Shown: positions 26,454 to 63,171, counted from the stretch's first letter. The stretch: 64,000 nucleotides of DNA from an uncultured Acidobacteriota bacterium (GCA_963759485.1 CAVWZE010000002.1:1498618-1562617); one strand, 5' to 3'. Program-made: numbers and translations. The notes: a model not told the origin generated them from the letters alone.

Positions 26454-26476
26454 GTCATCCTCCTAACCGCGAACGA

Positions 26477-28199: not shown

Positions 28200-28229
28200 A
28201 TTATACCCCGAACGCCCCGCAAAGTATAC
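28200..28229 (-). promoter_or_regulatory. Promoter-like motif GTATAC-N18-TATAAT (minus strand)
   Basis: Minus strand reads GTATACTTTGCGGGGCGTTCGGGGTATAATTAC. A near-identical architecture recurs at 34998..35028. Confidence 0.3.
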
Positions 28230-30495: not shown

Positions 30496-30549
30496 ATTTC
30501 CCTCCCCTTCCGCTCGTAGAGCGTCGGTCTATTAGACCGAGGTACCATC

Positions 30550-30810: not shown

Positions 30811-31060
30811 CGCGGTGTTCTCCTGAAACGGAAACGGCCGCCCGAAGGCGGCCGTGAAGTAGGGTTTAAAATGCGACGCAGACGTGTGTGTGGAACCGGG
30901 ATTCCAGGCTAAGTAGTAGCCGGGGGTCACGGGGGTCAGGGGACTTATTTTGCCCTGACAAAGAATCGAAAAAAATAAATCCGTAGCTAGTGCCAAACTG
31001 ACCACCGTGACCCCCGCGTTTCGCGTAACGTAAACCCCCTCAAGCGGTTAACGGGGGGGG

Positions 31061-33488: not shown

Positions 33489-33523
33489 CGCTAGCGTTCT
33501 CCCAGTGGACTTTCCCAGTTGGT

Positions 33524-33565
33524 ACAAAAATGAAAAGGGCGCGCCACTGGGAGGAAGCGCGCCCT
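33524..33565 (-). terminator. Intrinsic terminator-like hairpin
   Basis: Minus strand reads AGGGCGCGC-(12 nt loop)-GCGCGCCCT followed by TTTCATTTTTGT. Confidence 0.5.
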
Positions 33566-46919: not shown

Positions 46920-47393
46920 ATGGACCTAGAAAGGATTCGACAGGCGGCGGAGAGGGTGGCCCATTCCGAGGGTCTGGAAATCTTCGACGTCGAGTGGAAG
47001 GTCGGAAAGCAGCGGCTGCTGCGGGTTTATATCGACCGCCTGCCCGATCCGGAACACCTCGACGCTGCCGTGAGCCACAGCGACTGCCAGCGGGTGAGCG
47101 AGCAGTTGAGCGTAATTTTGGACGTGGAAGAGCTGATCCCTGGAACAGGCAGTTATGTACTGGAGATCAGTTCACCGGGGCTGGATCGAAAGCTGATCAA
47201 GCCGGGCGACTACGAACGGTTTGCGGGAAGGCTGGCAAAAATCTGGCTGACGGAGCCAGTCGAGAACCAGAAGTACTGGGAAGGCCGGCTGGCCGGCCAC
47301 GACAATGGCGTCGTAAAGCTGGCGGTGCGCGATCGTGAGGTTGCCGTGCCGTATAACCAGATTCGGAAGGCGAATTTGGTCGTGGAATTGTGA
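46920..47393 (+). CDS. rimP: Ribosome maturation factor RimP
   Basis: LRVYIDR...VLEISSPGLDRKL. First gene of the nusA-infB operon. Confidence 0.9.
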   Translation: MDLERIRQAAERVAHSEGLEIFDVEWKVGKQRLLRVYIDRLPDPEHLDAAVSHSDCQRVSEQLSVILDVEELIPGTGSYVLEISSPGLDRKLIKPGDYERFAGRLAKIWLTEPVENQKYWEGRLAGHDNGVVKLAVRDREVAVPYNQIRKANLVVEL

Positions 47394-47431
47394 TGGGCCA
47401 TAAGGGCATCGGGGGGAGAAGGAAGAGACAG

Positions 47432-48967
47432 ATGGTCAGTCTGCTATACCAGACAATCGAGCAGATCAGCCGGGAGAAGCACATTGAACCGGAGATCATC
47501 GTCGCGGCCATCGAGGACGCGATGGTCGTGGCGGCACGCAAATACTACCGGACTGAGGAAGAGCTGCGCTCGAAATTCAACCCCGAAAGCGGCCAGATTG
47601 ATGTTTTTTCAGTTCACATGGTAGTGGACGAAGTAGCGGATCCTGTTCGAGAAATTTCCCTCACGGACGCCCGCAAGCGAAACCCGGAAATCGAGGTCGG
47701 CGGCGAAATTACGCAGACCAAACCTACCGACGTGCTCGGGAGAATTGCCGCGCAGACCGCCAAGCAGGTGATCCTGCAAAAAGTGCGCGAAGCCGAGCGG
47801 GATACGATCTACAACGAATTTCACACCCGGGTGGGCGAGCTGATCAATAGCGTGGTAAAGCGTATGGAGGGTCCGGACATGATCGTGGACCTCGGCCGCA
47901 CGGAAGCGCGGCTGCCAAAGCGCGAACAGTCGCGCCTTGAGGCCTACAATGTCGGCGACCGGCTCCGCGTAACGATTCGAGCGGTCGAGCGCGCTGCAAA
48001 AGGACCGCAGGTGGTTGTTTCCCGCGCCGACCCGGCCTTGGTGCAGCGGCTCTTCGAAATGGAAGTTCCGGAAATTTATGACGGCACCGTACAAATCCGC
48101 GCCGTGGCGCGCGAAGCGGGCGAGCGCACAAAAATCGCAGTCGAAAGCCGTGACAAAGATGTGGACCCCGTGGGCGCGTGCGTCGGGATGAAGGGCATGC
48201 GCGTCCAGTCGATCATCCGCGAACTTCGCGGTGAAAAGATCGACATCATTCCGTACAGCGAAGAAACAGTCGCTTTCGCCCAAAAAGCCCTCAGCCCCGC
48301 GAAAGTTACTCGCGTGCAGATCGTGGACCCGGAGGAAAAGCGCCTCGAAGTGATCGTCGAGGATACCCAATTGTCGCTGGCCATCGGCAAGAAGGGGCAG
48401 AACGTCCGCCTCGCCAGCAAGCTGATCGGCTGGAATGTGGATATCAAGAGCGAGGAAGAAAAGCGACGCGAAATCGAAGCGCAGATGGCTGCGCTCACCG
48501 CTCCCGGCACCGCGCTTACCGAACTCAGCGGCGTCGGCCCGAAAACAATTGAGAAGCTCGAAGCCGCGGGAATCACCTCGATCGAAAAACTCGCCGACAT
48601 GACCCCTGAGCAACTAGTAGAAATTCCTGGCATCGGCGAGAAAATGGTGGAAAAGATTCACCAATCGGTCGCGGCGTACTTCGAGGCCCTTGAAGCGCAG
48701 CCGATCGCTCCGATTGAACCATCGACTGAAGACGAAGCGGCGGCGGAAGCAATGCCGCAAGCGAGTGAAGCAAGTGTTGAAGCGCCGGAGGCAACGGAGG
48801 CGGAGGACGAGGCGGGAACGGCCGACTTGACCGAAGAGGCGCAAGTCGAGCCGGTGCCGAGCGCAGAGGAACCGTCTGAAGAGGCTGAAGAAACCACTCC
48901 GGCGGATAAGGAAGCAGCCTCCACGGTAGACGAAAGCGCCGAGAAGAGAGAAACTCCCGAGGAATAG
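47432..48967 (+). CDS. nusA: Transcription termination/antitermination factor NusA (with acidic C-terminal tail)
   Basis: ORF 47390..48967. I prefer the ATG at 47432 (MVSLLYQTIEQISREKHIE), preceded by GGAGAAGGAAG. S1/KH regions (AVGACVGMKGMRVQSI, SLAIGKKGQNVRLASKL) and HhH repeats are present. Confidence 0.9.
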   Translation: MVSLLYQTIEQISREKHIEPEIIVAAIEDAMVVAARKYYRTEEELRSKFNPESGQIDVFSVHMVVDEVADPVREISLTDARKRNPEIEVGGEITQTKPTDVLGRIAAQTAKQVILQKVREAERDTIYNEFHTRVGELINSVVKRMEGPDMIVDLGRTEARLPKREQSRLEAYNVGDRLRVTIRAVERAAKGPQVVVSRADPALVQRLFEMEVPEIYDGTVQIRAVAREAGERTKIAVESRDKDVDPVGACVGMKGMRVQSIIRELRGEKIDIIPYSEETVAFAQKALSPAKVTRVQIVDPEEKRLEVIVEDTQLSLAIGKKGQNVRLASKLIGWNVDIKSEEEKRREIEAQMAALTAPGTALTELSGVGPKTIEKLEAAGITSIEKLADMTPEQLVEIPGIGEKMVEKIHQSVAAYFEALEAQPIAPIEPSTEDEAAAEAMPQASEASVEAPEATEAEDEAGTADLTEEAQVEPVPSAEEPSEEAEETTPADKEAASTVDESAEKRETPEE

Positions 48968-49036
48968 CACCGGCTCCCGGCGGAATCGGCGCCGGGCAAA
49001 AGAGTTTTGGACGACTTGTTCAAAGAATAGAGGCTG

Positions 49037-51856
49037 ATGTCAGATTCCAACCAAATCCGCATCAACGAACTGGCGCGAGAGCTTGAGATCAAAGCTAAGG
49101 TGCTGATCGACTTTCTGCCCCAGATCGGAGTCACGGAGAAAAAGACCCACTCGAGCTCACTCGACATTGAGCATGCCGAGCTGGCGCGAAAACATTTTCG
49201 CGAGCTAGCCGACGCGGAAGCGGCGGCGGAGGCGGCCAAGACAGCCGCAAAGTCAAAGGTCGTCCGGCCTGCCGCGGCACCCGCGAAGCCCGCTGGACCT
49301 GCCCCGGCACCGGCTGTGCATGCTGCCCCCGGTTCGCCAACGGTTCCGGCAAGGACGACACCCGCGCCTGGCGTGGCGCCACCTGCAGCGGCTCCGTCTG
49401 CGCCAGTGCGTCCGACTGTTTCGCCGGCCGCCCCGGCAGCTGCGACTCGGCCAGCGGCGCCTTCGGCTTCGCCAACTGCACCACGGACTGTGCCACCGAA
49501 CCGCCCGTCCCCTCCAGGAACGGCAACGGGACAGCCGTCCGCCCCCGGGACTATGCGTCCGGCAGCGGCTTCTTCAGCTCCCGCCACAGGCGCTCCGAGC
49601 GCGCCAAGGCCCGCAGGTCCGCCGCAAGCAGGACAGCCTGGTCGATTCCCGGCGCGTCCTGGTCAAGGCTTCGGCCAAAGTCGGCCGGGCGCTCCTCAAG
49701 GAATGCGCCCTGCGGCTGCACCGGGTCAGTCCAGACCGAGCGGCCCACCGAGACCTGGTGGAGCGCCGCCACCAAGATTTCCGCAGCGGCCAGGCACCAG
49801 TCGTCCCGGTCAGGGACCCATTGGAAGCCAGCGACCCGGCGCAACGGGCGTTTCAGGTCTGCCCAAGGCAGAACCAGGAAAGCCCCTCTACCAGCGAAAA
49901 CCGCCCGCTTCACGCGGACGTCCGACGATCGAAAAACGCTATGCCGAAGGCGAGCGCAGGCTGCACCCGGTTCGAACGCGCGCTGGTGTGGGAGCAGGAC
50001 GCGCGGCTCACGCTGAACCTGTGGCCCCTGTGCAACGCGAGCCGCGGAACGTCACGGTTACGGAAGGCATCACCGTACGCGAGCTTGCTGAGAAGATGGA
50101 TATTCGCGCCAAGGACTTGCTGAAAACCCTACTCGACCGCGGCGTTTTCGCCAGCATCAATCAAGCTCTCGATGTCCCCACTGCGACCAGTCTGGCGGAA
50201 GCGTTCAATGGAATCGTCCAAGTTGTGACCTTTGAAGAGCAGGTGGTCCAGGAAGAAAAAATTAAGGAAGAGCGCAGTGGAAACCAACTGCCGCGCGCTC
50301 CGGTAGTCACCGTGATGGGCCACGTGGACCACGGCAAGACCAGCTTGCTTGACGCCATCCGCGAAACCGAAGTAGCGGCAGGCGAAGCAGGCGGAATTAC
50401 CCAGCATATCGGCGCCTATGAAGCGCACGTGGACCAGCGGCGGATTGTTTTTATCGACACACCGGGCCACGAAGCGTTCACGCGAATGCGCGCGCGCGGA
50501 GCAAAGGTCACGGACATTGTCGTTTTGGTCGTAGCCGCGGACGATGGCGTGATGCCGCAGACGGAAGAAGCTATTGCGCACGCCAAAGCCGCCAACGTGC
50601 CCATCATTGTCGCCATAAATAAAATCGACAAGCCCGAGGCTCTGCCCGAGCGTGTGAAGCGCCAGCTTGCCGACCGCGGCTTGATGCCCGAGGAATGGGG
50701 CGGCGACACGGTGATGGTGGAAGTCTCCGCCAAGGCCAAGAAAAATCTGCCGCGCTTGCTCGAGATGATTCTGCTCGTCAGCGATTTGCGCGAACTCAAG
50801 GCCGATCCCGACGCTCCAGGCAGCGGCACCGTTCTCGAATCCCGCATGGATAAGGGCCGCGGACCTGTCGCTACCGTGCTGGTACAGAACGGAACCCTGC
50901 GCGTCGGCGACGTTTTCATCGTCGGCGCAGTGTACGGCAAAGTTCGCGCTATGTTTGACGATCGCGGCCAGGCCATTCAGAAGGCCGAACCGTCCACTCC
51001 CGTGGAAGTTCTCGGACTGCAAGGCGTGCCCGAAGCAGGCGACCAATTCCAGGTCGCGGACGAAGCCAAGGCCCGCCACATCGTCGAGTACCGTCAAGGA
51101 AAGCAGCGCGAGGCGGCTCTGGCAAAGACCGGCCCCTCCGGCCGCCTCACACTCGATCAACTGCACGAACAGCTTCGAGCAGGCGAAATGAAAGAATTGC
51201 CGGTGGTGGTGAAAGCGGACGTGCAAGGTTCTGTGGAAGTCCTCAACGAACTGCTGCCGGGACTTTCGAACGATCAGGTGCGGCTGAAAGTGATTCAGGC
51301 GAGCGTGGGTGCAGTGACCGAACGCGACGTGCTGCTCGCCTCGGCTTCCAATGCGATTATCGTGGCGTTCAACGTAAGGCCCGAGCGCAAAGCGTCCGAT
51401 CTCGCGCAGCGCGAAGGCGTGGACATCCGCCTCCACACGATTATCTACGAGCTGATTGACGAGCTGAAGAAAGCCGTCTCCGGACTGCTGGCGCCGCTCA
51501 TCAAGGAAACCTACCTGGGCCGCGCCGAAGTTCGCGACACCTTCCGCGTGAAGGGCGTGGGCATGATTGCGGGATGCTCCGTGCAGGAAGGCATCTTGAA
51601 GCGCGACGCGGACGTGCGCGTGCTTCGCGACAACGTGGTGATCTACACGGGCAAAATCAGCTCCCTACGGCGGTTCAAGGAAGACGCGAGCGAAGTACGC
51701 GCCGGCTTCGAGTGCGGCGCAGGCATCTCCAATTTCAACGACGTCAAAGTTGGCGATTCTCTGGAATGCTTCAAGATCGAGAAGGTCGCGCCGGTCGAAG
51801 CTCCGCCCGATCGAGCGGCACGGCCGCAAGCGGTGGTGGAAGCCAGGCGCGGCTAG
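49037..51856 (+). CDS. infB: Translation initiation factor IF-2
   Basis: Intact 939-aa ORF. Pro/Ala-rich N-terminal region, G domain ([26 protein letters not shown]). Confidence 0.95.
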
Positions 51857-51969
51857 AAGCGCGCGCCGGCGCACCGCGCGAAGTTTTTCGGTGCGGACCG
51901 GAGCTCCTCGGCTCGCTCCGGTTTTGCCTCCGAAAAGGGCGCGCCTTTACTGCCTCGGGATGAACGGAA

Positions 51970-52263
51970 ATGCCGGTCGGCCTCCTCACACTGGAAATTC
52001 ACATTTCTGACGCGCAGTCTTTGAAAGACAAGCGGCAGGTGCTTCGCGGCCTGAAAGACCGATTGCGCGCCCACTTCAACGTGGCCGTCTCCGAGCTGGA
52101 TCATCAAGAAGTTTGGCAGCGGTCGCGCGTCGGTGTGGTCACCATTTCTGGCGACGGCAAGCATCTCGAGGAATCGGTTCAAGCGATCGCCGCTGAATCG
52201 GAGCGCATCCTGGGGCGCGATCTGGTTTCAAGCCAAATCGAATATTTTGAGGATGGGGAATGA
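51970..52263 (+). CDS. DUF503 (YlxP-like) protein
   Basis: LEIHISDAQSLKDKRQVLRGLKDRLRAHFNVAVSE. Conserved position between infB and rbfA. Confidence 0.8.
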   Translation: MPVGLLTLEIHISDAQSLKDKRQVLRGLKDRLRAHFNVAVSELDHQEVWQRSRVGVVTISGDGKHLEESVQAIAAESERILGRDLVSSQIEYFEDGE

Positions 52264-52622
52264 CCGTCGGCGGATTTCGCGCGGAACGAATTGCGGAAGA
52301 AATCCGCAATGAAGTTGGCCTGATGCTGGCCGGTGAGTTGAAAGATCCGCGCTTGGCGGTGCCGCTTAGCGTCACGGAGGTTCGCGTCGCGCCCGGCATG
52401 CGCGCGGTGCGCGTTTTCGTGCAGATTCCCGGAGAAGATGCGGAGAGATCCAAAGCGCTGGCGGGCTTGAAAGCCGCCGCGGGTTTCGTCCGCCACGAAT
52501 TAGTCGAGCGGCTTCGGCTCCGGCGCGCTCCCGAGATCATTTTCCTCGTCGATGAATCCGAGGAGTACGGCGAGCATATCGACGAGCTGCTGCGGAAAGT
52601 ACATCAGCCGGAGAAATCGTAG
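52260..52622 (+). CDS. rbfA: Ribosome-binding factor A
   Basis: RAERIAEEIRNEVGLMLAGELKDPRL...VTEVRVAPGMRAVRVFV...LRRAPEIIF. Confidence 0.9.
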   Translation: MTVGGFRAERIAEEIRNEVGLMLAGELKDPRLAVPLSVTEVRVAPGMRAVRVFVQIPGEDAERSKALAGLKAAAGFVRHELVERLRLRRAPEIIFLVDESEEYGEHIDELLRKVHQPEKS

Positions 52623-52678
52623 CGGGCGTCGCCCGAAGTTTTGCCGGCTCCGAATCCGGCGCTGCGAATAAAGCCAAA

Positions 52679-53653
52679 ATGTCGCGAATCCCCCAACCGC
52701 CTCCACTCGATGGAATCCTCGTAGTCGATAAGCCGCGGGGAAAGACGTCTCACGACGTGGTCGAAACCGTGCGCCGCCTCGTCGGCTTCCGCCAAATCGG
52801 ACACCTTGGCACGCTCGACCCGCTGGCCACGGGTGTGCTGGTGCTCGCGCTCGGCAAAGCCACTCGGCTCGCGCGCTTCTACAAGGGACGGCGTAAACGC
52901 TACACTTGCGCCGTGCGCTTCGGCTTCGCCACGGATACGTATGACGCCGATGGCGAAGCCCAGGGCGCGGATTCGGCGCCCGTGCTCGATGAGGCGCAAA
53001 TTCAGGGGCTGGCCGCGCAATTCACAGGGAAAATCCAACAGACTCCTCCGTCCTTTTCGGCCAAAAAAATTCACGGGCGGCCGGCGCACGAACTCGCGCG
53101 CAAAAATAAACCCGTGAAGCTGGAACCGATTGACGTGGAAGTGTACGAATTCAGACTAACGGGAATCGAAGGCGCCATCGCTCGCTTCTCGGTCGAGTGC
53201 GGGGCGGGCACCTACATTCGTTCGCTGGCGCACGACCTGGGCAAGCTCCACGGCTCGGGCGCTCACCTGGCGGAAATAACCCGCACCGCGGTGGGGGAGT
53301 TTACTCTCGACCACGCCGTGCCGCTCGCCGAGCTTGCCGAAGAGGCAAAATCGGGGAAGATCTCCGCGCGGGTGATCCGGCTCGAAGGACTGCTCTCCGA
53401 ATTGCCGCGTGCCACTGTTCTGCCCATCGTCGAGAAGCGCGTGCGCCACGGCGCCAAGTTTAATTTGCCGCTCGCGCAAATTCAGCCCGGCCGTGCGACA
53501 GCCGCGCAAGGCGCGCCGGCCGAGCTTGATTCCGGGGAGTGGCAACCCTCGCGATTGCGGGTCTTCAGTCAGCAGGGACATTTAATCGCCATTGCCGAGC
53601 CTGTGGTTCCGCGCACGTATCAGCCGGTGGTCGTGCTCGACGCAACACAATAG
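52679..53653 (+). CDS. truB: tRNA pseudouridine(55) synthase
   Basis: GILVVDKPRGKTSHDVV...GHLGTLDPLATGVLVLALG...QTPPSFSAKKI. Confidence 0.9.
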   Translation: MSRIPQPPPLDGILVVDKPRGKTSHDVVETVRRLVGFRQIGHLGTLDPLATGVLVLALGKATRLARFYKGRRKRYTCAVRFGFATDTYDADGEAQGADSAPVLDEAQIQGLAAQFTGKIQQTPPSFSAKKIHGRPAHELARKNKPVKLEPIDVEVYEFRLTGIEGAIARFSVECGAGTYIRSLAHDLGKLHGSGAHLAEITRTAVGEFTLDHAVPLAELAEEAKSGKISARVIRLEGLLSELPRATVLPIVEKRVRHGAKFNLPLAQIQPGRATAAQGAPAELDSGEWQPSRLRVFSQQGHLIAIAEPVVPRTYQPVVVLDATQ

Positions 53654-53687
53654 ACATTTCCGCCGTTCCAGACGTTGCGCCAAATCT

Positions 53688-56600
53688 CTATTGGTCCGGC
53701 AAAGGCCGGACGCCCCGCTGCGTCGGCAGGTTTGCGGGGTTTTGTTCCAGCGGCTCTCGCCCTGGCTGCGGAACTGGCTGTGGTGGCACGAACGTGTTTC
53801 CCACTGTTCCAGCGCCTTCGCCCTCCACCGACCCCTGCCCCGCGTAAATCGTATGATCCTTGCGTGGGGCGAGCCGCACCATCCGCGGCGTGACCAGGAT
53901 AAGCAACTCGGTCTCCTGCTGCTGCGCGTTTTGGTTCTGATCGAGAAGACCGATTCCCGGAATGTCGGCGATTCCTGGGTTGCCGGTGATCGCGTTGCTG
54001 AGCTGCGTTTCGAGGAACCCTGCCAGCGCCGCCGTTTCGTTGGGCCTCACCCGAACTGTCTGATCCACTTCGTCATTGCTGATGATGGGGATTGCATTGA
54101 TGCTCTGGCCGCTCAGGCTGCTCATATTGAAGTTCAGATCAAGAGTAACGTCGTCGTTGGGATGGATTCGCGGCGTGGCCTTCACCTTCAGGCCGATGTC
54201 GAGGTACTGCACTCCTGGATACGGCGTGCCGAAAGAATTGAGCCCTACACCGCTGCCAAAAAGGCTGGCGGAATTGATGACGACGGTCGCCTGAGCCGAT
54301 CCGTTGTCTGCCGTGGCCGCATCTATCAGGCCGTCGCCATTAAAATCAGCCGTCGCGATGGAAGCAGGAGCAGCGCCCACCGGTATTTCCGGAAGCGCCG
54401 TGAAAAGCTCGCTGCCGCTGTTTAGAAGGACCGTTATGGCATTGTCCGTTTGGTCGGAGACCGCGATATCGGGAACGCCGTCCGCATTGTAATCTGCCAC
54501 GGAGATACTGGTTGGACCGTTGCCCGCGACGAAATCGCGGGTGGCGCCCGCTACGAATTTGCCAAGGGGCGCCGAGTTGGCGGTGCTGATTTGATTGTAG
54601 TAGACCGTCACGGAGTTTCCGCCGAGGTTCGCTACCGCGATGTCCTCGGCGCCATCGGCGTTAAAGTCTCCAAACGCCACTGATACGGGAGCGTCTCCGG
54701 TGGGATAGTCGGTGCGATTCTGAAAAGTTCCGTCGCCATTACCTAAGAAGACAGAGATGGTGTTGTGGCCTTGGTCCGCGACGACTAGGTCCGCGTGGCC
54801 GTCGCCATTCAGATCCGTGGCCGCAAGAGCGGCAGGTGAAAAACCGGTGGGAAGCTGGATCAATGCTGGCGCCTGGAAAGTACCGTCGCCATTTCCCTGA
54901 AAGACGGAAATCGAATTGTCGTCCTGGTTGGCGACCGCAAGATCGAGAAATCCCGTTCCGCTGAGATCGTGAAAATCGGTGGCGATCACTGAAACAGGCC
55001 CTCTGCCTGTTGGTATGTCCACTTTGGGCTGGAACGTGCCGTCGCCTTTCCCGAGCAAAATCGAAACCGTATTTGCGGCCTTATTGGCAACCGCCAAATC
55101 CAAAATGTTATCGCTATTTGCGGCGGCCGCGCCGTTATTGAATTGCCCGCTCGCAATCCAAACTGGAGTTGTCCCCGTCGGGAACGTCGTCTGCGCGCCG
55201 AATGTCCCGTCGCCATTTCCAAGCAACACCGACACGGTATTGTCGGCCGAATTCGCGACGATCAGGTCGTTCATACTAGTGCCGCGCAGGTCGGCTGTGG
55301 CCACGAAAGCAGGTGAATTCCCCGCCGCATAGTTGGTGAGCGGAGCCACTGTTGCCGCGCCGGCGCTGACGCTGCTGATTCCCGCCGATGTGATACTCGG
55401 AGCAAAAGTCGTAAGGGAGACCGGAACGCGGTCGCCCACAAAAAACGTCGCGGGCTGGCCGTCCTGCGCACGGAGCAAAATGCGCCGGCCCTGCCGGACA
55501 ACGGAGAGCATCTCGGCAAAATTGGCCGCCGCACCGGGAAGGGTGGCGAGAAACGTCGTCTTGCCTCCGCCGAAAGCAATGACCGGCGGAAGCGATGAGG
55601 TCCCGAAGATTTGGTTGATCACGTCAATGAGACCCTGGGCGGATTGTTCCGCCTCCTGAATTTGCTGCGAGCTGAGCGAATAAACCGTTGCGGTTTGAGG
55701 CGGGGTAATTCCAAGCTGCCGCGCGCGATTGCGGTCCACCTCGAGAACTTCAATTTCTAAAACCACTTCTCCCGTGGGCTGCTCGAGATTGCCAATCAGG
55801 TCCGAGGCCACCGCAATCGCTTGCGGAGACGCGCGCAGCGTGATCGTGCGGCTGTTCGCATCGAGGTCAGAGCGGGTGATGCCGGTGATATCGCGAACCA
55901 TTCGCAGCATTTCCGTCATCTGCTCGGGCGTTTCCGAAGACGGAAGCAAAACGGTGCGGACCACCGAAGCGTCGTAGTCTTTTCGTTTTTGCGGCGTATT
56001 GTCGGTGACGAAAAAGAGACGCGACGTGAGCGGCCGCCAAAATGTTGCGGTCAAGTCGCCCAGCACGCGCGCGGCGGTCGGGAAATCCATGTCGGTTACC
56101 TGGAAGTGAACCGTTCGAGCATGGAGATCGACGTCGAATGCCGCTTCCACACCAAATTGCGACGCCAACTGTTGGTACGCTCCCTGCGTATCGCCGCGAT
56201 AGTCGAAGCTCCGTTTGCCAGGCCGGTATTCGAGATCCGGCTCGCCCGTGATTTCCGGCTCATCGATTTCTCGAACCCTCTCCGGCTCCGCGGCCGTCAG
56301 TTCCACGATCCGTTCCTGCACTGTCCTATTCGAAGGATCGATGTAGCTGGCGTCGAGCAGTTCCCTGCGGGCTGCGTCCAGCCGCCCTGAGACGGCATCG
56401 CGCTCGGCGGCGTCAACCTTTTTTTGAACGATTCGACTTTTCGCGATTGCTAGACGCAGTAGGTATTCCCGGTCGCTTGGATCCCAGTGCGCCGCGTCGG
56501 AGTACGCGGCAAAAGCGGCGTCCCAATCCAGCCGCTGCTCCGCCCGTACGCCGTCTTCATAGGCTGCTTTCGCTTTTTTCGCATCGGCCTTGGACTCTAC

Positions 56601-56759
56601 CGGCGAGACGGCGGGTTTGACAGCGGGTGATTGCGAGGGTGCCTGAGCTGCGGTTGCACAGATCGCCAAAGTGCCGGCAAAAAGCAGCAAGCAGAAGCCG
56701 CTCGAGATTGCAACGCGACGGGGCCCTCGGACCTTGTCGGGATAATTCTGATCGGCCAT
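53688..56759 (-). CDS. Secretin-family outer-membrane channel protein with inserted seven-repeat FG-GAP/VCBS block
   Basis: ORF 53688..57833, likely start MADQNYPDK...signal peptide...ATAAQA at 56759 (1023 aa). Secretin N-domains and secretin core are split: ...VLEIEVLEVDRNRARQLGI...ILLRAQDGQPATFFVGDRVPV // YLDIGLKVKATPRIHPNDDVTLDL...IPIISNDEVDQTVRVRPNETAALAGF...ELLILVTPRMV. Between them are 7 repeats of D(x)NGDGxxDLxVAN...VSVxLGNGDGTF. Confidence 0.8.
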   Translation of the reverse strand: MADQNYPDKVRGPRRVAISSGFCLLLFAGTLAICATAAQAPSQSPAVKPAVSPVESKADAKKAKAAYEDGVRAEQRLDWDAAFAAYSDAAHWDPSDREYLLRLAIAKSRIVQKKVDAAERDAVSGRLDAARRELLDASYIDPSNRTVQERIVELTAAEPERVREIDEPEITGEPDLEYRPGKRSFDYRGDTQGAYQQLASQFGVEAAFDVDLHARTVHFQVTDMDFPTAARVLGDLTATFWRPLTSRLFFVTDNTPQKRKDYDASVVRTVLLPSSETPEQMTEMLRMVRDITGITRSDLDANSRTITLRASPQAIAVASDLIGNLEQPTGEVVLEIEVLEVDRNRARQLGITPPQTATVYSLSSQQIQEAEQSAQGLIDVINQIFGTSSLPPVIAFGGGKTTFLATLPGAAANFAEMLSVVRQGRRILLRAQDGQPATFFVGDRVPVSLTTFAPSITSAGISSVSAGAATVAPLTNYAAGNSPAFVATADLRGTSMNDLIVANSADNTVSVLLGNGDGTFGAQTTFPTGTTPVWIASGQFNNGAAAANSDNILDLAVANKAANTVSILLGKGDGTFQPKVDIPTGRGPVSVIATDFHDLSGTGFLDLAVANQDDNSISVFQGNGDGTFQAPALIQLPTGFSPAALAATDLNGDGHADLVVADQGHNTISVFLGNGDGTFQNRTDYPTGDAPVSVAFGDFNADGAEDIAVANLGGNSVTVYYNQISTANSAPLGKFVAGATRDFVAGNGPTSISVADYNADGVPDIAVSDQTDNAITVLLNSGSELFTALPEIPVGAAPASIATADFNGDGLIDAATADNGSAQATVVINSASLFGSGVGLNSFGTPYPGVQYLDIGLKVKATPRIHPNDDVTLDLNFNMSSLSGQSINAIPIISNDEVDQTVRVRPNETAALAGFLETQLSNAITGNPGIADIPGIGLLDQNQNAQQQETELLILVTPRMVRLAPRKDHTIYAGQGSVEGEGAGTVGNTFVPPQPVPQPGREPLEQNPANLPTQRGVRPLPDQ

Positions 56760-56903
56760 AGCTAATGTGTGATGCCATTGTACAAAGGAACGTAAACCGT
56801 GCGGCTGTAAAGCAGAACGATGTTGTTCAAAGAGCTTGAATTTGAGCCAGTACCTCGCTAGACTTGAAATGCCAGTTGCAACTCGTTTACAACTGAGAAT
56901 TCT

Positions 56904-57962
56904 ATGATTCCAGCTCTCCTTGTAGCTCTTCGGGAAGGTGTCGAGGCCGCGCTCATCGTCGGCATTGTACTCGTCTATTTGGACCGCAGCGGCCGCCGTG
57001 CATTGAAAAGCTATGCCTGGGGAGGAGTTATCCTCGCGTGTGCGGCCAGCGTCGCCGCCGCAGTGCTCTTGCAGAGCTGGGCAATTAGCGAAGACGGCTT
57101 CGAAGGCCTGCTGATGCTGCTGGCCTCCGCGCTGGTCGTCACCATGATTATATGGATGAACCGCGTGGCGCGGAGCCTGCGAGAAAACATCGAAGCGCGC
57201 GTGGAGGCTTATGCGCAGCGGTCCACGAGCGCCGCGGGATGGGCCATCGGCGCATTTGTTTTCTTCATGGTTGTGCGCGAGGGCGCGGAGCTCGTTCTGA
57301 TCCTGCGGGCGGTGCAGCTTTCCACCGCAGGCGTGCAAGTGTGGATTGGGACACTGCTCGGCATTGCGATTGCGGTCGGCGTGGGCGTTTTCTTCTTCCA
57401 GGGAACGCTGCGGATTCCGCTGCATCGCTTCTTTCGTGCCACAAGCATCATCCTTATGGTCGTCGCGTTCCAACTCGCCCTCACTGGCGTGCACGAGTTG
57501 AGCGAGGCCCAGTGGATATGGTCCAGCAAAACCGAGATGGCCACTGTCGGGCCGATCGTGCGCAATGAAGTTTTCTTTTTCGTGGTGATTCTGGGAGTGG
57601 CCGCGCTCGTGGTGATGCGCGAATGGTTCGGCGCGCGGCGGCCGTCCGAGGACGGCCGCCGCCAATCCCGCCGAACGCCGCTTGCGCGAATGGGAGTTTC
57701 GCCGCCAGCGCCGATGGAGCTTTGCCGCTGCAATCCTGTGCGTGCTGGTGGTCGTATCGCTGGCAGCGGAATTCGCGTACACGCACGCCATGAACGCCCC
57801 GCAACCCGCGCAGATGCTGACCGCGCAAAACAACGAAGTCCGAATTCCGCTTTCGGAATTGACCGATTCCAGCCTGCACTTTTACACGGCCGAGGTGAAT
57901 GGCACCTCCGTTCGATTTATGGTAATTCACCGTACCAACGGCGACTATGCCACGGCGCTTGA
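56904..57962 (+). CDS. FTR1-family iron permease (C-terminal ~95 aa of the ORF overlap the next gene and look artefactual)
   Basis: Two REGxE motifs (LREGVEAAL, VREGAELVL) and about 7 TM helices. After ...VVMREWFGARR the frame becomes Arg-rich and overlaps ORF 57682..58167 by 281 nt. Confidence 0.75.
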   Translation: MIPALLVALREGVEAALIVGIVLVYLDRSGRRALKSYAWGGVILACAASVAAAVLLQSWAISEDGFEGLLMLLASALVVTMIIWMNRVARSLRENIEARVEAYAQRSTSAAGWAIGAFVFFMVVREGAELVLILRAVQLSTAGVQVWIGTLLGIAIAVGVGVFFFQGTLRIPLHRFFRATSIILMVVAFQLALTGVHELSEAQWIWSSKTEMATVGPIVRNEVFFFVVILGVAALVVMREWFGARRPSEDGRRQSRRTPLARMGVSPPAPMELCRCNPVRAGGRIAGSGIRVHARHERPATRADADRAKQRSPNSAFGIDRFQPALLHGRGEWHLRSIYGNSPYQRRLCHGA

Positions 57963-58167
57963 TGCCTGCGAGATTTGCGGACGCGCGGGCTACCGTCAGG
58001 AAGGGCAAAACCTCATCTGCAAGAATTGCGGCTCTGCGATTTACATTCCTTCGATTGGCGATCGCGGTGGCTGCAATCCGATTCCAGTGAAATCGAGAGT
58101 CGCGGGAGGAGAAGTGGTCGTCGATCTCTCGGCGCTGGCCAACGCCAACGCGATGATTCACTCTTAA
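57682..58167 (+). CDS. DUF2318-type membrane-anchored Cys-rich (putative metal/Fe-S binding) protein
   Basis: TM helix AAAILCVLVVVSLAA, then FYTAEVNGTSVRFMVI...ALDACEICGRAGYRQEGQNLICKNCGSAI. TTG start is uncertain. Confidence 0.65.
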   Translation: MREWEFRRQRRWSFAAAILCVLVVVSLAAEFAYTHAMNAPQPAQMLTAQNNEVRIPLSELTDSSLHFYTAEVNGTSVRFMVIHRTNGDYATALDACEICGRAGYRQEGQNLICKNCGSAIYIPSIGDRGGCNPIPVKSRVAGGEVVVDLSALANANAMIHS

Positions 58168-58170
58168 ATA

Positions 58171-59469
58171 ATGTTCGCAAGAATCGTACGCCAATCGTTC
58201 GCTCGCAACGCGCGCCGCAAGATTCTGACCGCTGCGGCGCTGGTGGTGGGAATGGCCGTGGCGACGGCAACGCTGACCGTCGCGCTCGAAGTGGGCGACC
58301 GCATGGCGCGCGAATTTCGCAGCCTGGGCGCGAACCTGCTGGTTACGCCGCAATCGGACACGTTGCCCGTTGAAATCGGCGGCGTCGATTACCGCCCAGT
58401 TGACCAGGGCGCCTATCTCCCAGAAGCGGATCTGGGCAAATTGAAAACGATTTTCTGGCGCCACAATATTCTCGGTTTCACTCCATTCCTCGACGTTCCC
58501 GCATATTTCAGTCCCGGCGACGCGCAGGCGAAAACCGCCGCAACCGTTATCGGCACATGGTATGACCATGAGGTTCCTGTGCCGGACGGAACGGCGTTCA
58601 AAACGGGCGCAAGCGTCACGCATCCGTGGTGGACAATTCAAGGCCGCTGGTTTCATGACGACGCACAGGAAGTAGTGGTGGGCGAGGCACTGGCTGCGAC
58701 GCATCCAGACACTCTCGCGATTGGCAAGACGATATACGTAGCGGAGAGCGAGAATTCCGGCTCTACGCGCCCGCTGGTCGTGACAGGCATCGTTTCAGCA
58801 GGTGACAATGAGGACAATGCCCTGCTGGTTCCTCTTTCCGTCGCGCAAAATCTCTCCGGCCATCCCGGGCAGTTTCGGCAGCTTTTTGTAAGCGCGCTCA
58901 CCAAGCCGGCCGACGCGCTGGCCAGCCGCGATCCGAAGACGCTGACGCCGACGGAATACGACCGCTGGTTCTGCTCGCCCTACATTTCGTCGATCAGTTA
59001 CCAGATTGAAGAAGTGCTGCCCGGAACGGATGTGCATGCGATCCGGCGCGTGGCGGATTCCGAGGGCAAGATTCTTTCTCATGTGAGCACGCTGCTGTGG
59101 ATCGTAACGCTGGCCGCGCTGGTGGGCGCGGGACTTGCCGTGGCGGCCACTTCCGCCGCCGCCATTCTCGAGAGGCGCGCGGAGATCGGAGTTATGAAAG
59201 CGATCGGCGCGACGAATACGTCCATCTCGGCGCTATTTCTGACGGAGCACTTGATGCTCGCGCTCATCGGCGGAGCGATCGGATTCATCTTTGGCACAGG
59301 TCTTGCGCGTTTTCTCGGAGAAAGTGTCTTCGGTGCGCCGGCATCTCCGCGAATCATCCTTCTGCCAATTGTTCTCGGGCTTGCGGCGCTCGTGGCGCTG
59401 GCTGGCGGTCTGATTCCCTTGCGGCGGGCGGCGCATTTCGATCCTGCGCCGATCCTGCGGGGCGAATGA
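58171..59469 (+). CDS. ABC transporter permease, FtsX/MacB-like
   Basis: 432 aa. N-terminal TM, large periplasmic domain, C-terminal FtsX domain (ERRAEIGVMKAIGATNTSISALFLTEHLMLALIGGAIGF). Confidence 0.85.
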   Translation: MFARIVRQSFARNARRKILTAAALVVGMAVATATLTVALEVGDRMAREFRSLGANLLVTPQSDTLPVEIGGVDYRPVDQGAYLPEADLGKLKTIFWRHNILGFTPFLDVPAYFSPGDAQAKTAATVIGTWYDHEVPVPDGTAFKTGASVTHPWWTIQGRWFHDDAQEVVVGEALAATHPDTLAIGKTIYVAESENSGSTRPLVVTGIVSAGDNEDNALLVPLSVAQNLSGHPGQFRQLFVSALTKPADALASRDPKTLTPTEYDRWFCSPYISSISYQIEEVLPGTDVHAIRRVADSEGKILSHVSTLLWIVTLAALVGAGLAVAATSAAAILERRAEIGVMKAIGATNTSISALFLTEHLMLALIGGAIGFIFGTGLARFLGESVFGAPASPRIILLPIVLGLAALVALAGGLIPLRRAAHFDPAPILRGE

Positions 59470-60621
59470 TGTTCGGCCGTATACTCTGGAAACTGCTGCG
59501 CGGCAATCGCGGCCGCCTTGCCGTGGCACTTGTCGCAGTGGCCAGTGGCGCGACGGTAATCTCGGGACTTCTGAATCTTCAGTTCGACATGCGGGAAAAG
59601 CTGACGCACGAGTTTCGCCTGTTGGGCGCAAATCTGGTTATTTCCCGCGGCGGGACGTCGGGGGCGGGCGGTGGCGCCGTGGGCACGCCGGGTTCGCCAG
59701 CTTTGATGGATCAAGGCGCCGTGCTGAATCAACTCCAGCGGCTGCAGACGCCCGATGTGGTGGGCGCCGCGCCGTTTCTGTATATTGTGGCCCGCAATCA
59801 AGATACTCCCGTGGTGGTGGCCGGCACCTGGCTCGACCAGCTTCCGAAACTCGATCCTACGTGGAAGATTGATGGCCAATGGATCGCGTCGCGCGAGGAT
59901 GACGCGCAGTGCATCATCGGCCGCAACGCCGCCCGGCAGTTTCATTTTTCTCCCGGCGACAAGATCACGTTGAACTATCTCGGCCGCAGCGCAAGCTTTG
60001 AAATCGCGGGCGTGGTTGACGCTGGCGCCGCTGCGGACAATCAAGTTTTCGTAAGCCTTCTGGCAGCGCAGCAACTCGCCGCGACGGGCGCGCAAATCGA
60101 ATTGGTGCAGATGAGCGTAAGTGGCACGGCGGCGAGCATTGGCAGCCTACGCGGCGAAACTGGCGAGTTCCCTTCCCGGCTATGATGTGCGTCCCATCCG
60201 GCAGGTGACGGAAGCCGAGGGCAATCTGCTGCAGCGCACGCGGTTGCTGATCGCGTCGATGGTGGTGCTGATTCTGACGCTGACAGCGCTGTGCGTGCTG
60301 GCGACGATGGCCGCGCTCGCGATGGAGCGGCGTGAAGACGTCGGCTTGATGAAGGCGCTCGGTGGATCGATGGCGCGCATCGTGGGATTGTTTCTCGCCG
60401 AAGTGGGAGTGCTCGGTGCGGCGGGGGGGCTGATCGGCAGCATCGCGGGAATCGCACTGGCGCATTGGATGGGCGAGCGCGTCTTCGGCGCGTCCATTGC
60501 GGCGCGCTGGGAAGTTTTCCCGCTGACGATTGCGATGATGGTGATTGCGTCGATGGCCGGTGCGCTGCCGCTGCGCGCGCTGGGAAAGGTGAAGCCCGCG
60601 GTAATTCTGCGCGGCGAATAA
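59466..60621 (+). pseudogene. Second FtsX/MacB-like ABC permease, apparent frameshift near 60120-60150
   Basis: MMFGRILWKLLRGNRGRLAVALVAV... in ORF 59097..60185 (ATG at 59466, ATGA overlap with the upstream stop) continues in ORF 60121..60621 (ERREDVGLMKALGGSMARIVGLFLAEV). Confidence 0.8.
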
Positions 60622-60630
60622 AGGACAATC

Positions 60631-61296
60631 TTGGCGCCACTGGTACAAATCGAGGATCTGCGCAAAGAGTTTGGGAGTGTTCGCGCGCTCGATGGAGTGT
60701 CGTTTGACGTGGACGCCGGGGAATGGATCGCGATCATGGGGCCTTCGGGCTCGGGCAAGACCACGCTGATAAATATTCTGGGCGGCCTGGACACGCCGAC
60801 CTCGGGACGCGCGCTGGTGGACGACACCGAGGTGGCGCGGCTGGACGAAAGCGGGCTCGCCAAATTTCGCGCGCAGAAAATCGGGTTTATCTTTCAGCAG
60901 TTTCACCTGGTTCCTTATCTGAGTGCGCTGGAAAACGTGATGCTGGCGCAGTATTTTCACAGCACCACGGATGAGACCGAGGCGCGGCAGGCGCTCGGGC
61001 GCGTGGGCCTCGCGGATCGCATCGAGCATTTGCCCGGTCAGCTTTCCGGCGGCGAACAGCAGCGCGTGGCTGTGGCGCGGGCGCTGATCAATCATCCGAA
61101 ACTGGTTCTCGCGGATGAGCCGACGGGAAATCTTGATGAAGCGAACGAGGAGATTGTTCTGCGACTGCTGCGCGAACTTCACTCGGAGGGCCACACGATT
61201 CTGATGGTCACGCACGCGCCGTCGATTGGCGCACTCGCCGACCGGCGGATCGATTTGGCCCATGGCCGACTGGCGCAGGTTGTGATCCGCGCTTGA
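60631..61296 (+). CDS. ABC transporter ATP-binding protein (MacB/LolD-like)
   Basis: GPSGSGKTTL, LSGGEQQRVAVARAL, LADEPTGNLD. Confidence 0.9.
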   Translation: MAPLVQIEDLRKEFGSVRALDGVSFDVDAGEWIAIMGPSGSGKTTLINILGGLDTPTSGRALVDDTEVARLDESGLAKFRAQKIGFIFQQFHLVPYLSALENVMLAQYFHSTTDETEARQALGRVGLADRIEHLPGQLSGGEQQRVAVARALINHPKLVLADEPTGNLDEANEEIVLRLLRELHSEGHTILMVTHAPSIGALADRRIDLAHGRLAQVVIRA

Positions 61297-61597
61297 GGAG
61301 TCCCATTCAACCCCTTCGCAATAGTGTCGAGTAGAGTGTGCGCCGATCCTTTGTTTTGAATGACTTGCGTCACATTCTACTCGGCTCGTTGTGTCGAGTA
61401 GACTGGGGAGGACTCGAGCGGCTTCACGAGGCGCGGCGCCCGCTAGGAGAGGGCGCACTGCGAGCCCCCCAGGCCGGAGCCGCTTTTCTTCGCCGCCACA
61501 ATCCATGGTTCTCATCGTCACGGGCTCAGACTAGCAAACAGATGACAAACGCAAGGAAGAAAAGCCTGTGGACTCCTGTGTGGGCTAACTCTAGTGA

Positions 61598-61984
61598 TTA
61601 CGAGCCGGCGAGGAATTTGTATTGGTCGGCGGTGAGAGGGACGACGGAGAGGCGTCCTTGGCGGACTAAAGGCGAGTCGGAGAATAGCTTGTTGGCTTTG
61701 ATTTGCGCGAGGGTGATTGGCTTTGGTAGCGGCTTCCCTGTTTTGATTTTCACTTCGGGGTTTTTCGGGTTTGAAGCATCAACCGAGACGACTGTCGCGG
61801 TGCCTACTGCGCTTTTGCGGTCGCCCGTTTCGTAAATCACGAGTTTCGCGCCCGGCTGCATTTCGCGCAGGTTCCGTAGGGCAACTGGATTCGAGACGCC
61901 GTCCCAGACTGTGGTGCCGTCACGCTGAAGGTCCTCGAAGGAATAGGCGGAAGCTTCGGTTTTTAGCAGGTAGCTGTTGGCCAT
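61598..61984 (-). CDS. EVE (PUA-like) domain protein
   Basis: ORF 61598..62014, start MANSYLLKTE at 61984. WDGVSNPVALRNLREMQPGAKLVIYETG. Confidence 0.75.
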   Translation of the reverse strand: MANSYLLKTEASAYSFEDLQRDGTTVWDGVSNPVALRNLREMQPGAKLVIYETGDRKSAVGTATVVSVDASNPKNPEVKIKTGKPLPKPITLAQIKANKLFSDSPLVRQGRLSVVPLTADQYKFLAGS

Positions 61985-62337
61985 GGCGATAGCCTCCGTA
62001 GGAAGAAAGACCATTCTACACGGCGGAGAAGCTCTTTCTAAGCTACACGCTGATTTGGTCTCGATCGAAGAGAGATCCCTCTGCTGCGCGTCCCGGCCTT
62101 AGCGTAAAGGCAAAGGCGCGGGACACTCCACTCGGAGTGACGGCGCGAGACAGAACTGCGAACTGCACAGCCCGCGCGGGCTATGCTCCCTTACTTGCTG
62201 AGGGCAGGCAGAGGGACGAAACGCGAACGGGCGCCGCTGATTCTTTGTCGCATCGGTTTCGGACTCGTCAAAAGAGCCGCATTGGCGTGTGACCAACGAC
62301 TGCGGATAAGAGGCAGCGGTGTATAATTGTGTTCCCC

Positions 62338-63171
62338 ATGCAACGGATCGGAAGAGTTTTTCCATTGATGGTGGCGCTGGCGCTTCCTGCGTCGGGCCTC
62401 GCGCGAAATATTCGGACAGCCGCGCTAAATGGTGCTGTGGACTCAATGAATAGCTGCCCGACGAGGTCGCTGCTGCTGAATTTCGACGTTTATCGGGGTG
62501 GGCAGGCTGTTCGGCAGGTGCCGATCTGGCGGCTGCAGAACGACGCAGCTTTTTTCTTTACGTCCAGCCTGACGATTGACGCTGACGGAGCGCCGAACGC
62601 CTACAATCCGGAAGACACTGGGTTGGACGACCTTTCTAACGCAGGGCAACCGGGCCATTGGGACGGCATCATTGCCGACGAGGGAGGAAATCCGGTGGTT
62701 CAAGGGCCTAATGACCCGTTCCCTGGATACTACATTTCCTGCACGGCGCTTTCGGATTGGACGAAAGAGCGCGTCGATCCTACACGATATGTGAATGCTT
62801 CGAAGATCCGTTACATCGCGCTGCCCGAAGAATTGGCCCACGAAGCGGGCGCGCGGTTGGGGGATTTGGCGGTTGTGGTGAACACGCGAAGCGGCAGGTC
62901 CGCGTACGCAATTTTCGCGGACATCGGCAGGCTTGGGGAGGGTTCGATTGCGCTTGCGGATAATCTGGGAATCTGGTCGGATGCGCGCCGCGGCGGGAGA
63001 TGGGGCGGCATTCTGTACCTGGTGTTTCCAGGCTCGGGCGAGCATCGACCGATGTCACTTGAAGAGATCAACGAGCGGACCGAAACGCTATTCCACGAGT
63101 GGGGCGGCATCGAACACGTCCGTTCCTGCGCGGACCCCGCACCCCAGGACCCACCGTTCCGGTTTGAATAG
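62338..63171 (+). CDS. Secreted glycoside hydrolase family 75-like protein (chitosanase-like)
   Basis: Signal peptide MQRIGRVFPLMVALALPASGLA. TIDADGAPNAYNP, IRYIALP, GDLAVVVN...SAYAIFADIG..GEGSIALADNLGI as in GH75. Confidence 0.65.
   Translation: MQRIGRVFPLMVALALPASGLARNIRTAALNGAVDSMNSCPTRSLLLNFDVYRGGQAVRQVPIWRLQNDAAFFFTSSLTIDADGAPNAYNPEDTGLDDLSNAGQPGHWDGIIADEGGNPVVQGPNDPFPGYYISCTALSDWTKERVDPTRYVNASKIRYIALPEELAHEAGARLGDLAVVVNTRSGRSAYAIFADIGRLGEGSIALADNLGIWSDARRGGRWGGILYLVFPGSGEHRPMSLEEINERTETLFHEWGGIEHVRSCADPAPQDPPFRFE

Follow-up and report, generated by a model that had tools for sequence, protein, structure and literature searches.

How can a secretin close its pore, or exist at all, when each of its gate flaps carries a domain of 39 kDa? 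The question is raised by a gene on the minus strand (positions 53688 to 56759) of a 64-kb stretch of DNA from an uncultured soil bacterium of the Acidobacteriota (GCA_963759485.1, CAVWZE010000002.1:1498618-1562617), which as a whole, 64,000 nucleotides long, is called the window here. The gene is predicted to encode a genuine subunit of a secretin-family outer-membrane channel, and in this protein the tip of the Gate 1 loop is replaced by a tethered seven-bladed β-propeller. In every secretin structure cited in two papers on gating, short Gate 1 loops close the pore by meeting at its centre (PMC10550240; PMC8563730). An earlier reading of the locus (the original prediction) had put the insert in a loop of the secretin barrel. 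The site proved to be the tip of Gate 1, and the question is therefore how the channel gates or exists, and not how its outer face is decorated.

That the 1023-amino-acid (aa) protein is a secretin interrupted by a block of seven FG-GAP repeats, as had been proposed, was borne out by Pfam, by the number of repeats and by splicing in silico. In the native protein Pfam finds FG-GAP_3 (PF13517) in six stretches (5.6e-48; 161.8 bits, cutoff 26.9), FG-GAP (PF01839) at 7.5e-15 and Secretin (PF00263) at 4.5e-27 (95.1 bits, cutoff 27.5). The Secretin match is limited to aa 845–962, which correspond to profile positions 51–169, and the N-terminal 463 aa searched alone give no match with the Secretin profile. 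When aa 455–836 are deleted in silico, one continuous Secretin match of 104.8 bits results, which extends over profile positions 17–169; secretin sequence is thus found on both sides of the repeats, in agreement with the original prediction. The spliced protein is colinear across the junction with the solved chains of GspD/XcpQ, PilQ, RcpA and pIV (phmmer). With the insert-less relative P0162, BLASTP yields two high-scoring segment pairs in colinear order, aa 25–458 (48% identity) and aa 845–993 (52% identity), so that 386 aa (459–844) stand where P0162 has 13 aa, with the gate-stem sequences kept on both sides. The continuous match after splicing and the colinear alignments together indicate that the secretin domain is truly split by the insert. 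A structural model of the insert-less ortholog P0162 matches all secretin classes in Foldseek (PilQ at 5e-19, InvG, GspD, BfpB, pIV and RcpA) and also the isolated N0 domains of XcpQ, GspD, MxiD and EscC.

The position of the insert can be read from two well-studied secretins. The central gate of XcpD is the loop of 30 aa between the conserved "pivot" glycines at positions 466 and 496, and its tip residues T477 and S480 cross-link between neighbouring subunits at disulfide distance, with an orifice of less than 15 Å (PMC10550240). In f1 pIV the hinges of Gate 1 are Gly267 and Gly297, likewise 30 residues apart, and the lip region comprises residues 199–234 (PMC8563730). In the phmmer alignment FFVG442DRVPV of the window protein corresponds to LVG466QNVPF of XcpD and YLDIG856LKV to RKDIG496VSL, with the splice point facing the tip of the XcpD loop near T477/S480. 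Neither G442 nor G856 varies in any of the alignments made, and the two are equivalent to the G267/G297 pattern of pIV. By these alignments the insert lies between the two pivot glycines of Gate 1, the central gate, at the loop tip. The distance from pivot to pivot is 414 aa in the window protein, 400–441 aa in 46 homologs and 386–701 aa across the insert-bearing relatives, as compared with 29–45 aa in the rest of the family. The short Gate 1 loop (approximately 30–45 aa) with converging tips is therefore a feature that the window protein lacks, and we infer that it cannot close as known secretins do. An insert in a loop of the barrel wall or of the lip is ruled out, since the site maps to the stretch that the Gate 1 pivots enclose, on the C-terminal side of the lip; practically no weight can thus be given to an addition to the external lip or cap loop of the kind seen in Vibrio-type cap gates.

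The insert itself is well defined. Seven FG-GAP repeats are found at aa 483–835, and the boundaries originally estimated (about aa 447, and 470–835) are close to those obtained here (Table 1). AlphaFold2, run on the monomer with an alignment of 47 sequences, models aa 474–830 as a seven-bladed propeller with a predicted local distance difference test (pLDDT) above 90. Foldseek against the PDB retrieves seven-bladed propellers with template modelling (TM) scores of up to 0.79, among them the EPTP domain of LGI1 (TM 0.78), and further the KICSTOR chain 9v9n_B, integrin α headpieces, the BBSome and PpgL; the repeats therefore do suffice for a complete propeller. The calcium-loop-like and GDGTF motifs noticed earlier are present in four copies each: D-x-N-x-D-G-x-x-D loops in blades 4–7 (at aa 649, 698, 756 and 805) and G-N/K-G-D-G-T-F motifs in blades 1–4. 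The last Asp of the D-x-N-x-D-G-x-x-D loops is invariant among the 46 homologs. The loops are of the calcium-binding type, which makes the propeller a putative Ca2+ binder. Its mass is approximately 39 kDa per subunit and reaches, with nested Ig domains, up to approximately 75 kDa in relatives. On both sides of the propeller pLDDT falls below 50 (aa 444–471 and 835–852). Because of this low pLDDT, a conservation of 32–53% and a relaxed ratio of nonsynonymous to synonymous substitution rates (dN/dS) for linker A, linker A (approximately 26 residues) and linker B (approximately 19 residues) are modelled as flexible tethers of the propeller.

The architecture is widespread and maintained. More than 1000 database proteins match the window protein at E<=1e-10; the best 120 matches listed are all approximately 1000–1120 aa long and have the same three Pfam families in the same architecture. 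A scan in which each GTDB species was represented by one genome revealed a relative in 232 species-level genomes, and the insert is present in all of the best 80 loci (L010–L089). Nearly all of the best 80 loci are titled Acidobacteriota, mostly Ca. Acidiferrales (class Terriglobia), and about 9 of the 80 carry the titles of other phyla (Verrucomicrobiia, Ca. Dormiibacterota, Ca. Baltobacteraceae and others), which are suspected mislabels. On average, the homologs share with the window protein 64% identity in the propeller, 76% in N3, 70% in the C-terminal half of the secretin module and 87% in the pre-gate strands, as against 32% in linker A and 53% in linker B. Pairwise dN/dS is 0.07–0.2 for the propeller, 0.06–0.29 for the secretin core and 0.27–0.9 for linker A, which argues for purifying selection on both the channel part and the propeller across an Acidobacteriota order.

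These data bear on the possibility, raised as a refutation of the original prediction, that the open reading frame (ORF) is an assembly chimera, and equally on a gene fusion or a decaying pseudogene. Such an artefact might be suspected because the native Pfam Secretin match covers the C-terminal part alone and because neighbouring genes in the window show frame breaks. However, the same uninterrupted architecture recurs in independent assemblies from many samples, a relative is encoded by the 232 species-level genomes, dN/dS is near 0.1 in propeller and secretin core alike, and the flanks are colinear with solved secretins and with insert-less orthologs. The breadth of homologs, the architecture shared by the best 120 matches listed and the purifying selection refute a chimera or pseudogene; like the lip-loop site, an artefact can be left almost entirely out of account.

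A profile search of 1.84 billion cluster representatives shows a large family of TPR-secretins, and in the top 150 representatives, from which the gate lengths were read, Gate 1 length is bimodal, being either 29–45 or 386–459 aa. Three representatives exceed this range: in P0327, whose gate has 603 aa, the propeller contains two nested He_PIG domains; in P0299, whose gate has 695 aa, three Ig-like repeats separate blades 3 and 4; and P0340 (L090, 317–4303) has a gate of 701 aa with Big_2 repeats (3–4 copies) after blade 1. In a neighbour-joining tree of the core, drawn without support values, all insert-bearing sequences group in a single subclade, and the basal members of the clade to which it belongs have gates of 41–45 aa; nested in this subclade are the insert-less P0293 as well as P0162 and P0167, with gates of exactly 41 aa, the ancestral length, which could be due to precise loss, to allelic recombination at the conserved locus or to error in the tree. 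A second large clade has gates of 29–39 aa, and some of its members possess a lipobox and, at the C-terminus, a cohesin domain. Orthologs that lack the insert and have a 41-aa gate also occur at the very locus between truB and the FTR1 operon, e.g., P0196 (L008/L009, 37% identity), and both the insert-less P0167 (L007) and the Big_2 variant P0340 are encoded near truB. A third homolog search with the C-terminal 187 aa as query gave fragments only.

Where are the propellers located? The likelihoods that we attach in words to the readings of topology and function, from the extracellular crown to the iron conduit, belong to partly overlapping categories. The barrel of pIV has an inner diameter of 90 Å and a height of 96 Å, and the constriction at the N3 and N0 rings measures 74 Å (PMC8563730). 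A lumen of this size holds approximately 6x10^5 Å3, as calculated, whereas fifteen propellers of 357 aa would occupy approximately 7x10^5 Å3 and twelve approximately 5.7x10^5 Å3. From this we infer that the barrel cannot house the propellers and that they cannot meet in the middle of the pore, and the Gate 1 hairpins are therefore most likely held flipped up in an open-like position. On opening, the gates of secretins are known to flip upward against the barrel wall (PMC10550240; PMC8563730).

We thus favour, tentatively and short of calling it probable, an extracellular cap, or ligand-binding crown, of propellers. The usual 12–15-mer would carry 12–15 propellers of approximately 39 kDa each. 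If the Gate 1 hairpins are flipped up as in the structure of open InvG, tethers of 26 and 19 residues (up to approximately 88 and 65 Å when extended) would allow the propellers to come out at the extracellular mouth, where their space is not limited. Assembled there into a multivalent crown, they would replace the lost central seal and act as a cap. The crown might bind an external ligand or surface, and engagement of the ligand or of a partner could move the propellers so that the channel opens or closes. Any of the roles proposed originally (cap, adhesin or recognition module) may apply. The nesting of Big_2 (P0340), He_PIG (P0327) and Ig-like domains (P0299) in the propeller, domain types typical of cell-surface proteins, is a hint that fits a surface-exposed role.

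Several points weigh against the extracellular crown. The models are of the monomer, so that the membrane side assigned to the propellers is putative, and in the monomer model the secretin core has a pLDDT of only 30–70, a low confidence which is to be expected because the monomer is taken out of a multimeric barrel. Each propeller would have to cross the nascent channel, folded or unfolded, for which we know of no precedent. Propellers also exist in the periplasm (TolB, BamB, PpgL), where Ca2+ is likewise available. The oligomeric state could differ from 12–15. A constitutively flipped gate would threaten the barrier function of the outer membrane unless the crown seals the pore, and that it seals is speculation. 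Finally, the genomic context suggests no ligand.

The main rival, which we consider rather unlikely, is a periplasmic location, with the hairpins pointing down or inward and the propellers in or below the vestibule, where they could serve as a docking or recognition platform, as a binder of peptidoglycan or of a partner, or as a plug that an inner-membrane partner removes. Secretins fold and assemble from the periplasmic side, and no folded 39-kDa domain would have to be translocated; the tethers of 19–26 residues could reach approximately 60–90 Å, and the periplasmic PpgL is among the Foldseek matches. However, the predicted periplasmic part is short, consisting of N0 and N3 alone, and the vestibule bounded by the N3 and N0 rings is too small for 12–15 propellers; the shorter tether limits the reach to approximately 65 Å, the known motion of the gate is upward, and the variants with nested Big_2 and He_PIG domains look more like surface proteins.

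A related but bolder view of the extracellular crown, which we regard as doubtful, is that the gate has become the attachment point of a self-displayed, 12–15-valent receptor or adhesin, elaborated in relatives by Ig-like domains, and would be a novel outer-membrane device that works without a type II secretion system (T2SS) or type IV pilus (T4P). In one version, a ligand-gated giant pore, binding at the propellers would pull the gate hairpins open or shut; in the other, an "auto-secretin", the barrel would export its own loop insert for display at the surface.

The protein need not conduct at all. The barrel could be an oligomeric anchor that presents 12–15 propellers and is permanently plugged by their tethers, of which thirty chains would thread the lumen. 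Such an anchor would fit the lack of a partner machine: genes for T2SS, T4P or pilins were found neither within ±10 kb in the 88 loci near truB nor among the ORFs scanned in the window, and only the distant cohesin-type paralogs are, by contrast, followed by genes with a prepilin motif. But the pivot glycines, the gate-flanking strands (87% conserved) and N0/N3 are strongly constrained, which is not expected if gating and periplasmic coupling were dispensable, and the insert-less orthologs of this locus are no less orphan, which means that the orphan status predates the insert. We think a non-conducting anchor improbable.

The limits of the gene and its parts are summarized in Table 1. The reading frame is a complete coding sequence of 1023 aa plus stop codon; a longer ORF to 57833 was rejected, since it overlaps the divergent FTR1 gene and homologs do not use the longer start. 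Database protein P0001 is 100% identical to the window protein, and the family is full length.

Table 1. Features of the gate-insert secretin gene and of its flanks in the window (amino acids of the secretin; nucleotide positions of the window)
Feature	aa	Position	Strand	Basis or remark
Coding sequence of the gate-insert secretin		53688..56759	(-)	ORF translation, full-length homologs
Signal-peptide-like N-terminus	1-39	56643..56759	(-)	hydrophobic core and A-x-A-Q, sequence inspection
TPR-like helical domain, five helices	57-157	56289..56591	(-)	AlphaFold pLDDT 84-91
N0-like periplasmic domain	183-263	55971..56213	(-)	model, pLDDT 80-90
N3-like (Secretin_N-type) domain	264-342	55734..55970	(-)	alignment to XcpQ N3
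Secretin C-module, first half: lip region and strands into Gate 1	343-447	55419..55733	(-)	spliced profile match, positions 17-50
First pivot glycine	G442	55434-55436	(-)	invariant; aligns to XcpD G466
Linker A, Ser/Ala/Gly-rich tether	448-473	55341..55418	(-)	pLDDT <50
Seven-bladed FG-GAP/VCBS β-propeller	474-830	54270..55340	(-)	Pfam, pLDDT >90, Foldseek
Linker B	831-849	54213..54269	(-)	pLDDT <50
Secretin C-module, second half	850-964	53868..54212	(-)	PF00263 profile 51-169
Second pivot glycine	G856	54192-54194	(-)	invariant; aligns to XcpD G496
Pro-rich low-complexity C-terminal tail	965-1023	53691..53867	(-)	pLDDT <50, 40% conservation
truB		52679..53653	(+)	convergent, end 35 nt from secretin stop codon; Pfam, synteny
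FTR1+FtrD-like permease, two MacB/FtsX-type permeases, ABC ATPase		56904..61296	(+)	divergent; Pfam

The N-terminal part is less firmly established. The proposed signal peptide and TPR-like region agree with the hydrophobic N-terminus, which contains A-x-A-Q and looks signal-peptide-like, and with five modelled helices (aa 60–156 in the AlphaFold2 model, which places the N3-like domain at aa 266–342), but Pfam finds no TPR in the window protein; Pfam TPR matches are confined to the relatives P0196, P0325 and P0131, so that the TPR-like region of the window protein is model-based, and it also shows a weak NCBIfam match to TraC-like proteins. The A-x-A-Q motif is conserved in the family consensus and a canonical lipobox is absent, whereas the cohesin-type paralogs carry a lipobox (A-G-C) instead. 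Similarly, the proposed secretin N-domains are supported by the alignment to N3 of XcpQ and by an N0-like model (β-α-β-β-α-β-β) but not by PF03958, which has no match in the window protein itself; in the relatives P0325, P0327 and P0320 it matches at the N3-equivalent position. The second half of the secretin C-module holds the returning Gate 1 strand, Gate 2, a PGIADIPGIG loop and the last barrel strand. At the position of the Pro-rich tail the cohesin-type paralogs run on into the cohesin domain.

The gene lies between truB and an iron-uptake-type cluster, as originally described and as confirmed by Pfam and synteny. On the truB side the gene order is nusA-infB-...-truB, convergent with the secretin, and convergent truB together with divergent FTR1 is found in 73 of the 80 insert-bearing loci. 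FTR1 linkage is lost in L052 and not seen on the short contig of L058, the secretin being intact in both; truB linkage is lost in L030 and L085, where FTR1 linkage is kept; and in L067 and L069 neither gene adjoins the secretin, whose neighbours in L069 are genes for DNA polymerase X, a methyltransferase and subunits of a Mo-hydroxylase. From the gene orders the adjacency is read as synteny at the level of the order. Genes for a T2SS, T4P, Tad or type III secretion system (T3SS) had been reported missing nearby, and indeed no domain of these systems was found in a Pfam scan of window ORFs that covered 20 of those with 220 aa or more in 1–47400 and 10 ORFs in 47390–63171. A prepilin motif is present neither in the 64-kb window nor in any of the 88 truB-locus loci, and no genes for a partner machine were found in related loci, including the synteny-broken L069.

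Might the secretin be a large gated outer-membrane conduit of the neighbouring FTR1/FtrD-like and MacB-type ABC iron operon, with the propeller capturing the iron source? The divergent adjacency in 73 of 80 loci (L010–L089) would fit such a role, as would its retention next to the insert-less P0196 at only 37% identity and its survival in L030 and L085, where the truB linkage is gone. The shared spacer moreover contains a promoter-like sequence, CTTGAwTTT..(17)..TAGACT, and after it an inverted repeat, AGTTGnAAC-n-TTnCAACT, both conserved and immediately upstream of the FTR1/FtrD-like gene (window 56836–56895 on the plus strand, inverted repeat at 56874–56895; equivalent spacer in L001–L089). 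Both occur exactly once per spacer in 73 of the 80 loci and as a single copy in the 64-kb window, and the inverted repeat, which is unlike a classical Fur box, is a candidate repressor operator of the iron-uptake operon. It abuts the FTR1 start, however, and has no fixed spacing to the secretin, whose start is between 91 and 1868 nt away; the candidate operator is assigned to the FTR1 promoter. A scan of the gene region for promoters and terminators revealed nothing informative.

Further points argue against an iron conduit. The linkage to truB-rbfA-infB-nusA on the other side is equally conserved, as plain synteny in a single order would have it; in L052, L067 and L069 the secretin is intact but no longer linked to FTR1 (and no FTR1 is seen on the short contig of L058, where the secretin is intact too); the neighbouring proteins are far more conserved than the secretin; and we know of no secretin that serves metal uptake. 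The iron operon of the window itself looks frameshifted: FTR1 (ORF 56904–57962) and the FtrD-like part (57682–58167) do not share a frame, and the gene for the second FtsX permease is in two pieces (59097–60185 and 60121–60621), whereas homologous loci have single intact genes for approximately 420 and 389 aa, respectively, and the homologous FTR1 operons are intact in L001, L004 and L008. These frame breaks could be assembly errors or pseudogenization. We give an iron conduit little credence and regard the FTR1/MacB-type cluster as context, the adjacency lending at most weak support to a functional link with the secretin.

A few observations on the surroundings may be added. In L001 (4898–5974) and L008 (602–1702) the ABC ATPase of the FTR1 operon ends in a Fe_dep_repr_C (DtxR/FeoA-like) domain; such a fusion is unusual, and it may be a direct sensor of iron. 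The cohesin-type paralogs (L091, 6180–9565; L005, 10001–13216) are TPR lipo-secretins with 27–29% identity to the window protein. Their genes neighbour smpB and precede one or two small genes that have a prepilin GFTLIE motif; these loci may encode an uncharacterized type IV filament-like system whose secretin bears a cohesin. Just downstream of the one in L005 (13669–17752) lies a cluster resembling a cyclic oligonucleotide-based antiphage signalling system (CBASS), with a CD-NTase C-terminal domain, a Cap15-like effector and an AAA ATPase. In the window, positions 21917–33527 on the minus strand are probably a prophage or integrated element, with genes for an integrase (21917–22888), a prohead protease (25545–26453), a major capsid protein (26563–27723) and a RepB-type primase (32163–33527).

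No functional elements of secretins are better validated than the pivot glycines and the loop tips, as shown by leaky mutants and by cross-links that block secretion, and a propeller on the gate tips that is selected lineage-wide is not predicted by the canonical gating model and should surprise secretin specialists. A structure of the multimer would reveal a new way of sealing and opening an outer-membrane pore of 5–8 nm, a new route of surface display or a non-canonical stoichiometry. The natural series at the same locus, from a 41-aa gate to a propeller and to a propeller with Big_2 or He_PIG domains, can be used to dissect gate function, and it marks the gate tip as a permissive insertion site that is of interest for engineering. 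The protein is also a conserved feature of the cell envelope of Ca. Acidiferrales, an order represented here solely by metagenome-assembled genomes.

As anticipated, the literature searched contains no description of a secretin with an FG-GAP/VCBS propeller or a comparable gate insertion, and variants with a propeller gate are not described in the paper on the slime-nozzle secretin. In the source databases these proteins are named "FG-GAP-like repeat-containing protein" or generic GspD/CpaC. An assignment to one secretin class was rejected, since the NCBIfam equivalogs score far below their cutoffs and since in Foldseek the P0162 model matches the classes about equally. The window protein reaches 90.9 bits with the GspD equivalog TIGR02517 (cutoff 351.35), and gsp genes are absent from the window ORFs scanned and from the related loci examined; with PilQ TIGR02515 it reaches 71.7 bits (cutoff 284.35), AMIN is not matched by Pfam and there are no pil genes nearby.

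Among known systems, GspD/XcpD (XcpQ) (PDB 5WLN, 5WQ7, 5WQ8) gives the best sequence matches in the PDB and NCBIfam. Common to both are the secretin C-module with inner and outer barrel, the two pivot glycines of Gate 1, the Gate 2 region, a PxxGxIPxxG loop and, putatively, domains of the N0 and N3 type. In contrast to GspD/XcpD the window protein has no N1/N2 and no S-domain, has an N-terminal TPR-like domain, and has a Gate 1 of 414 aa with a propeller rather than of 30 aa. With the Vibrio-type cap-gate GspD it shares the addition of structure at the closure of the channel, and the propeller crown would be the analogue of the cap. However, the cap gate is an extension of the β-lip hairpins by approximately 20–30 residues (PMC8563730; PMC10550240), whereas the addition in the window protein is a globular domain of 386 aa in the central gate and not in the lip. 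Filamentous-phage pIV (PDB 7OFH) is similar in its minimal N0-N3-secretin layout without S-domain, which is predicted for the window protein too, in having Gate 1 hinges that map to G442/G856 and in being encoded away from a classical T2SS or T4P operon. It differs by a normal pore-sealing Gate 1, by its partners pI/pXI and by the lack of a TPR region and of a propeller.

The insert-less TPR-secretins P0196, P0162 and P0167 (37–51% identity) have the same order of TPR, N0, N3 and secretin and a Gate 1 of 41 aa. The cohesin-type TPR-secretins P0212 and P0221 (27–29% identity) also have this domain order, with a Gate 1 of 29–39 aa, but differ by the lipobox, the C-terminal cohesin and the downstream prepilin-motif genes. 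Both groups of Acidobacteriota TPR-secretins are likewise uncharacterized.

For the insert, the FG-GAP propellers of integrin α subunits are comparable in having seven blades and D-x-N-x-D-G-x-x-D loops in blades 4–7. Unlike integrin α, the window propeller is internal, with both termini tied to the gate hairpin, and no partner resembling a β subunit is known. A looser analogy exists to the inverse autotransporters intimin and invasin, in which domains of extracellular type are carried through the lumen of an outer-membrane barrel; their counterparts would be the propeller and, in relatives, Big_2 or He_PIG, exposure being putative in the present case. Intimin and invasin have a monomeric, BAM-dependent barrel of 12 strands with a terminal passenger, whereas the window protein would form the barrel of a giant multimeric secretin, its "passenger" being inserted in a loop within the chain.

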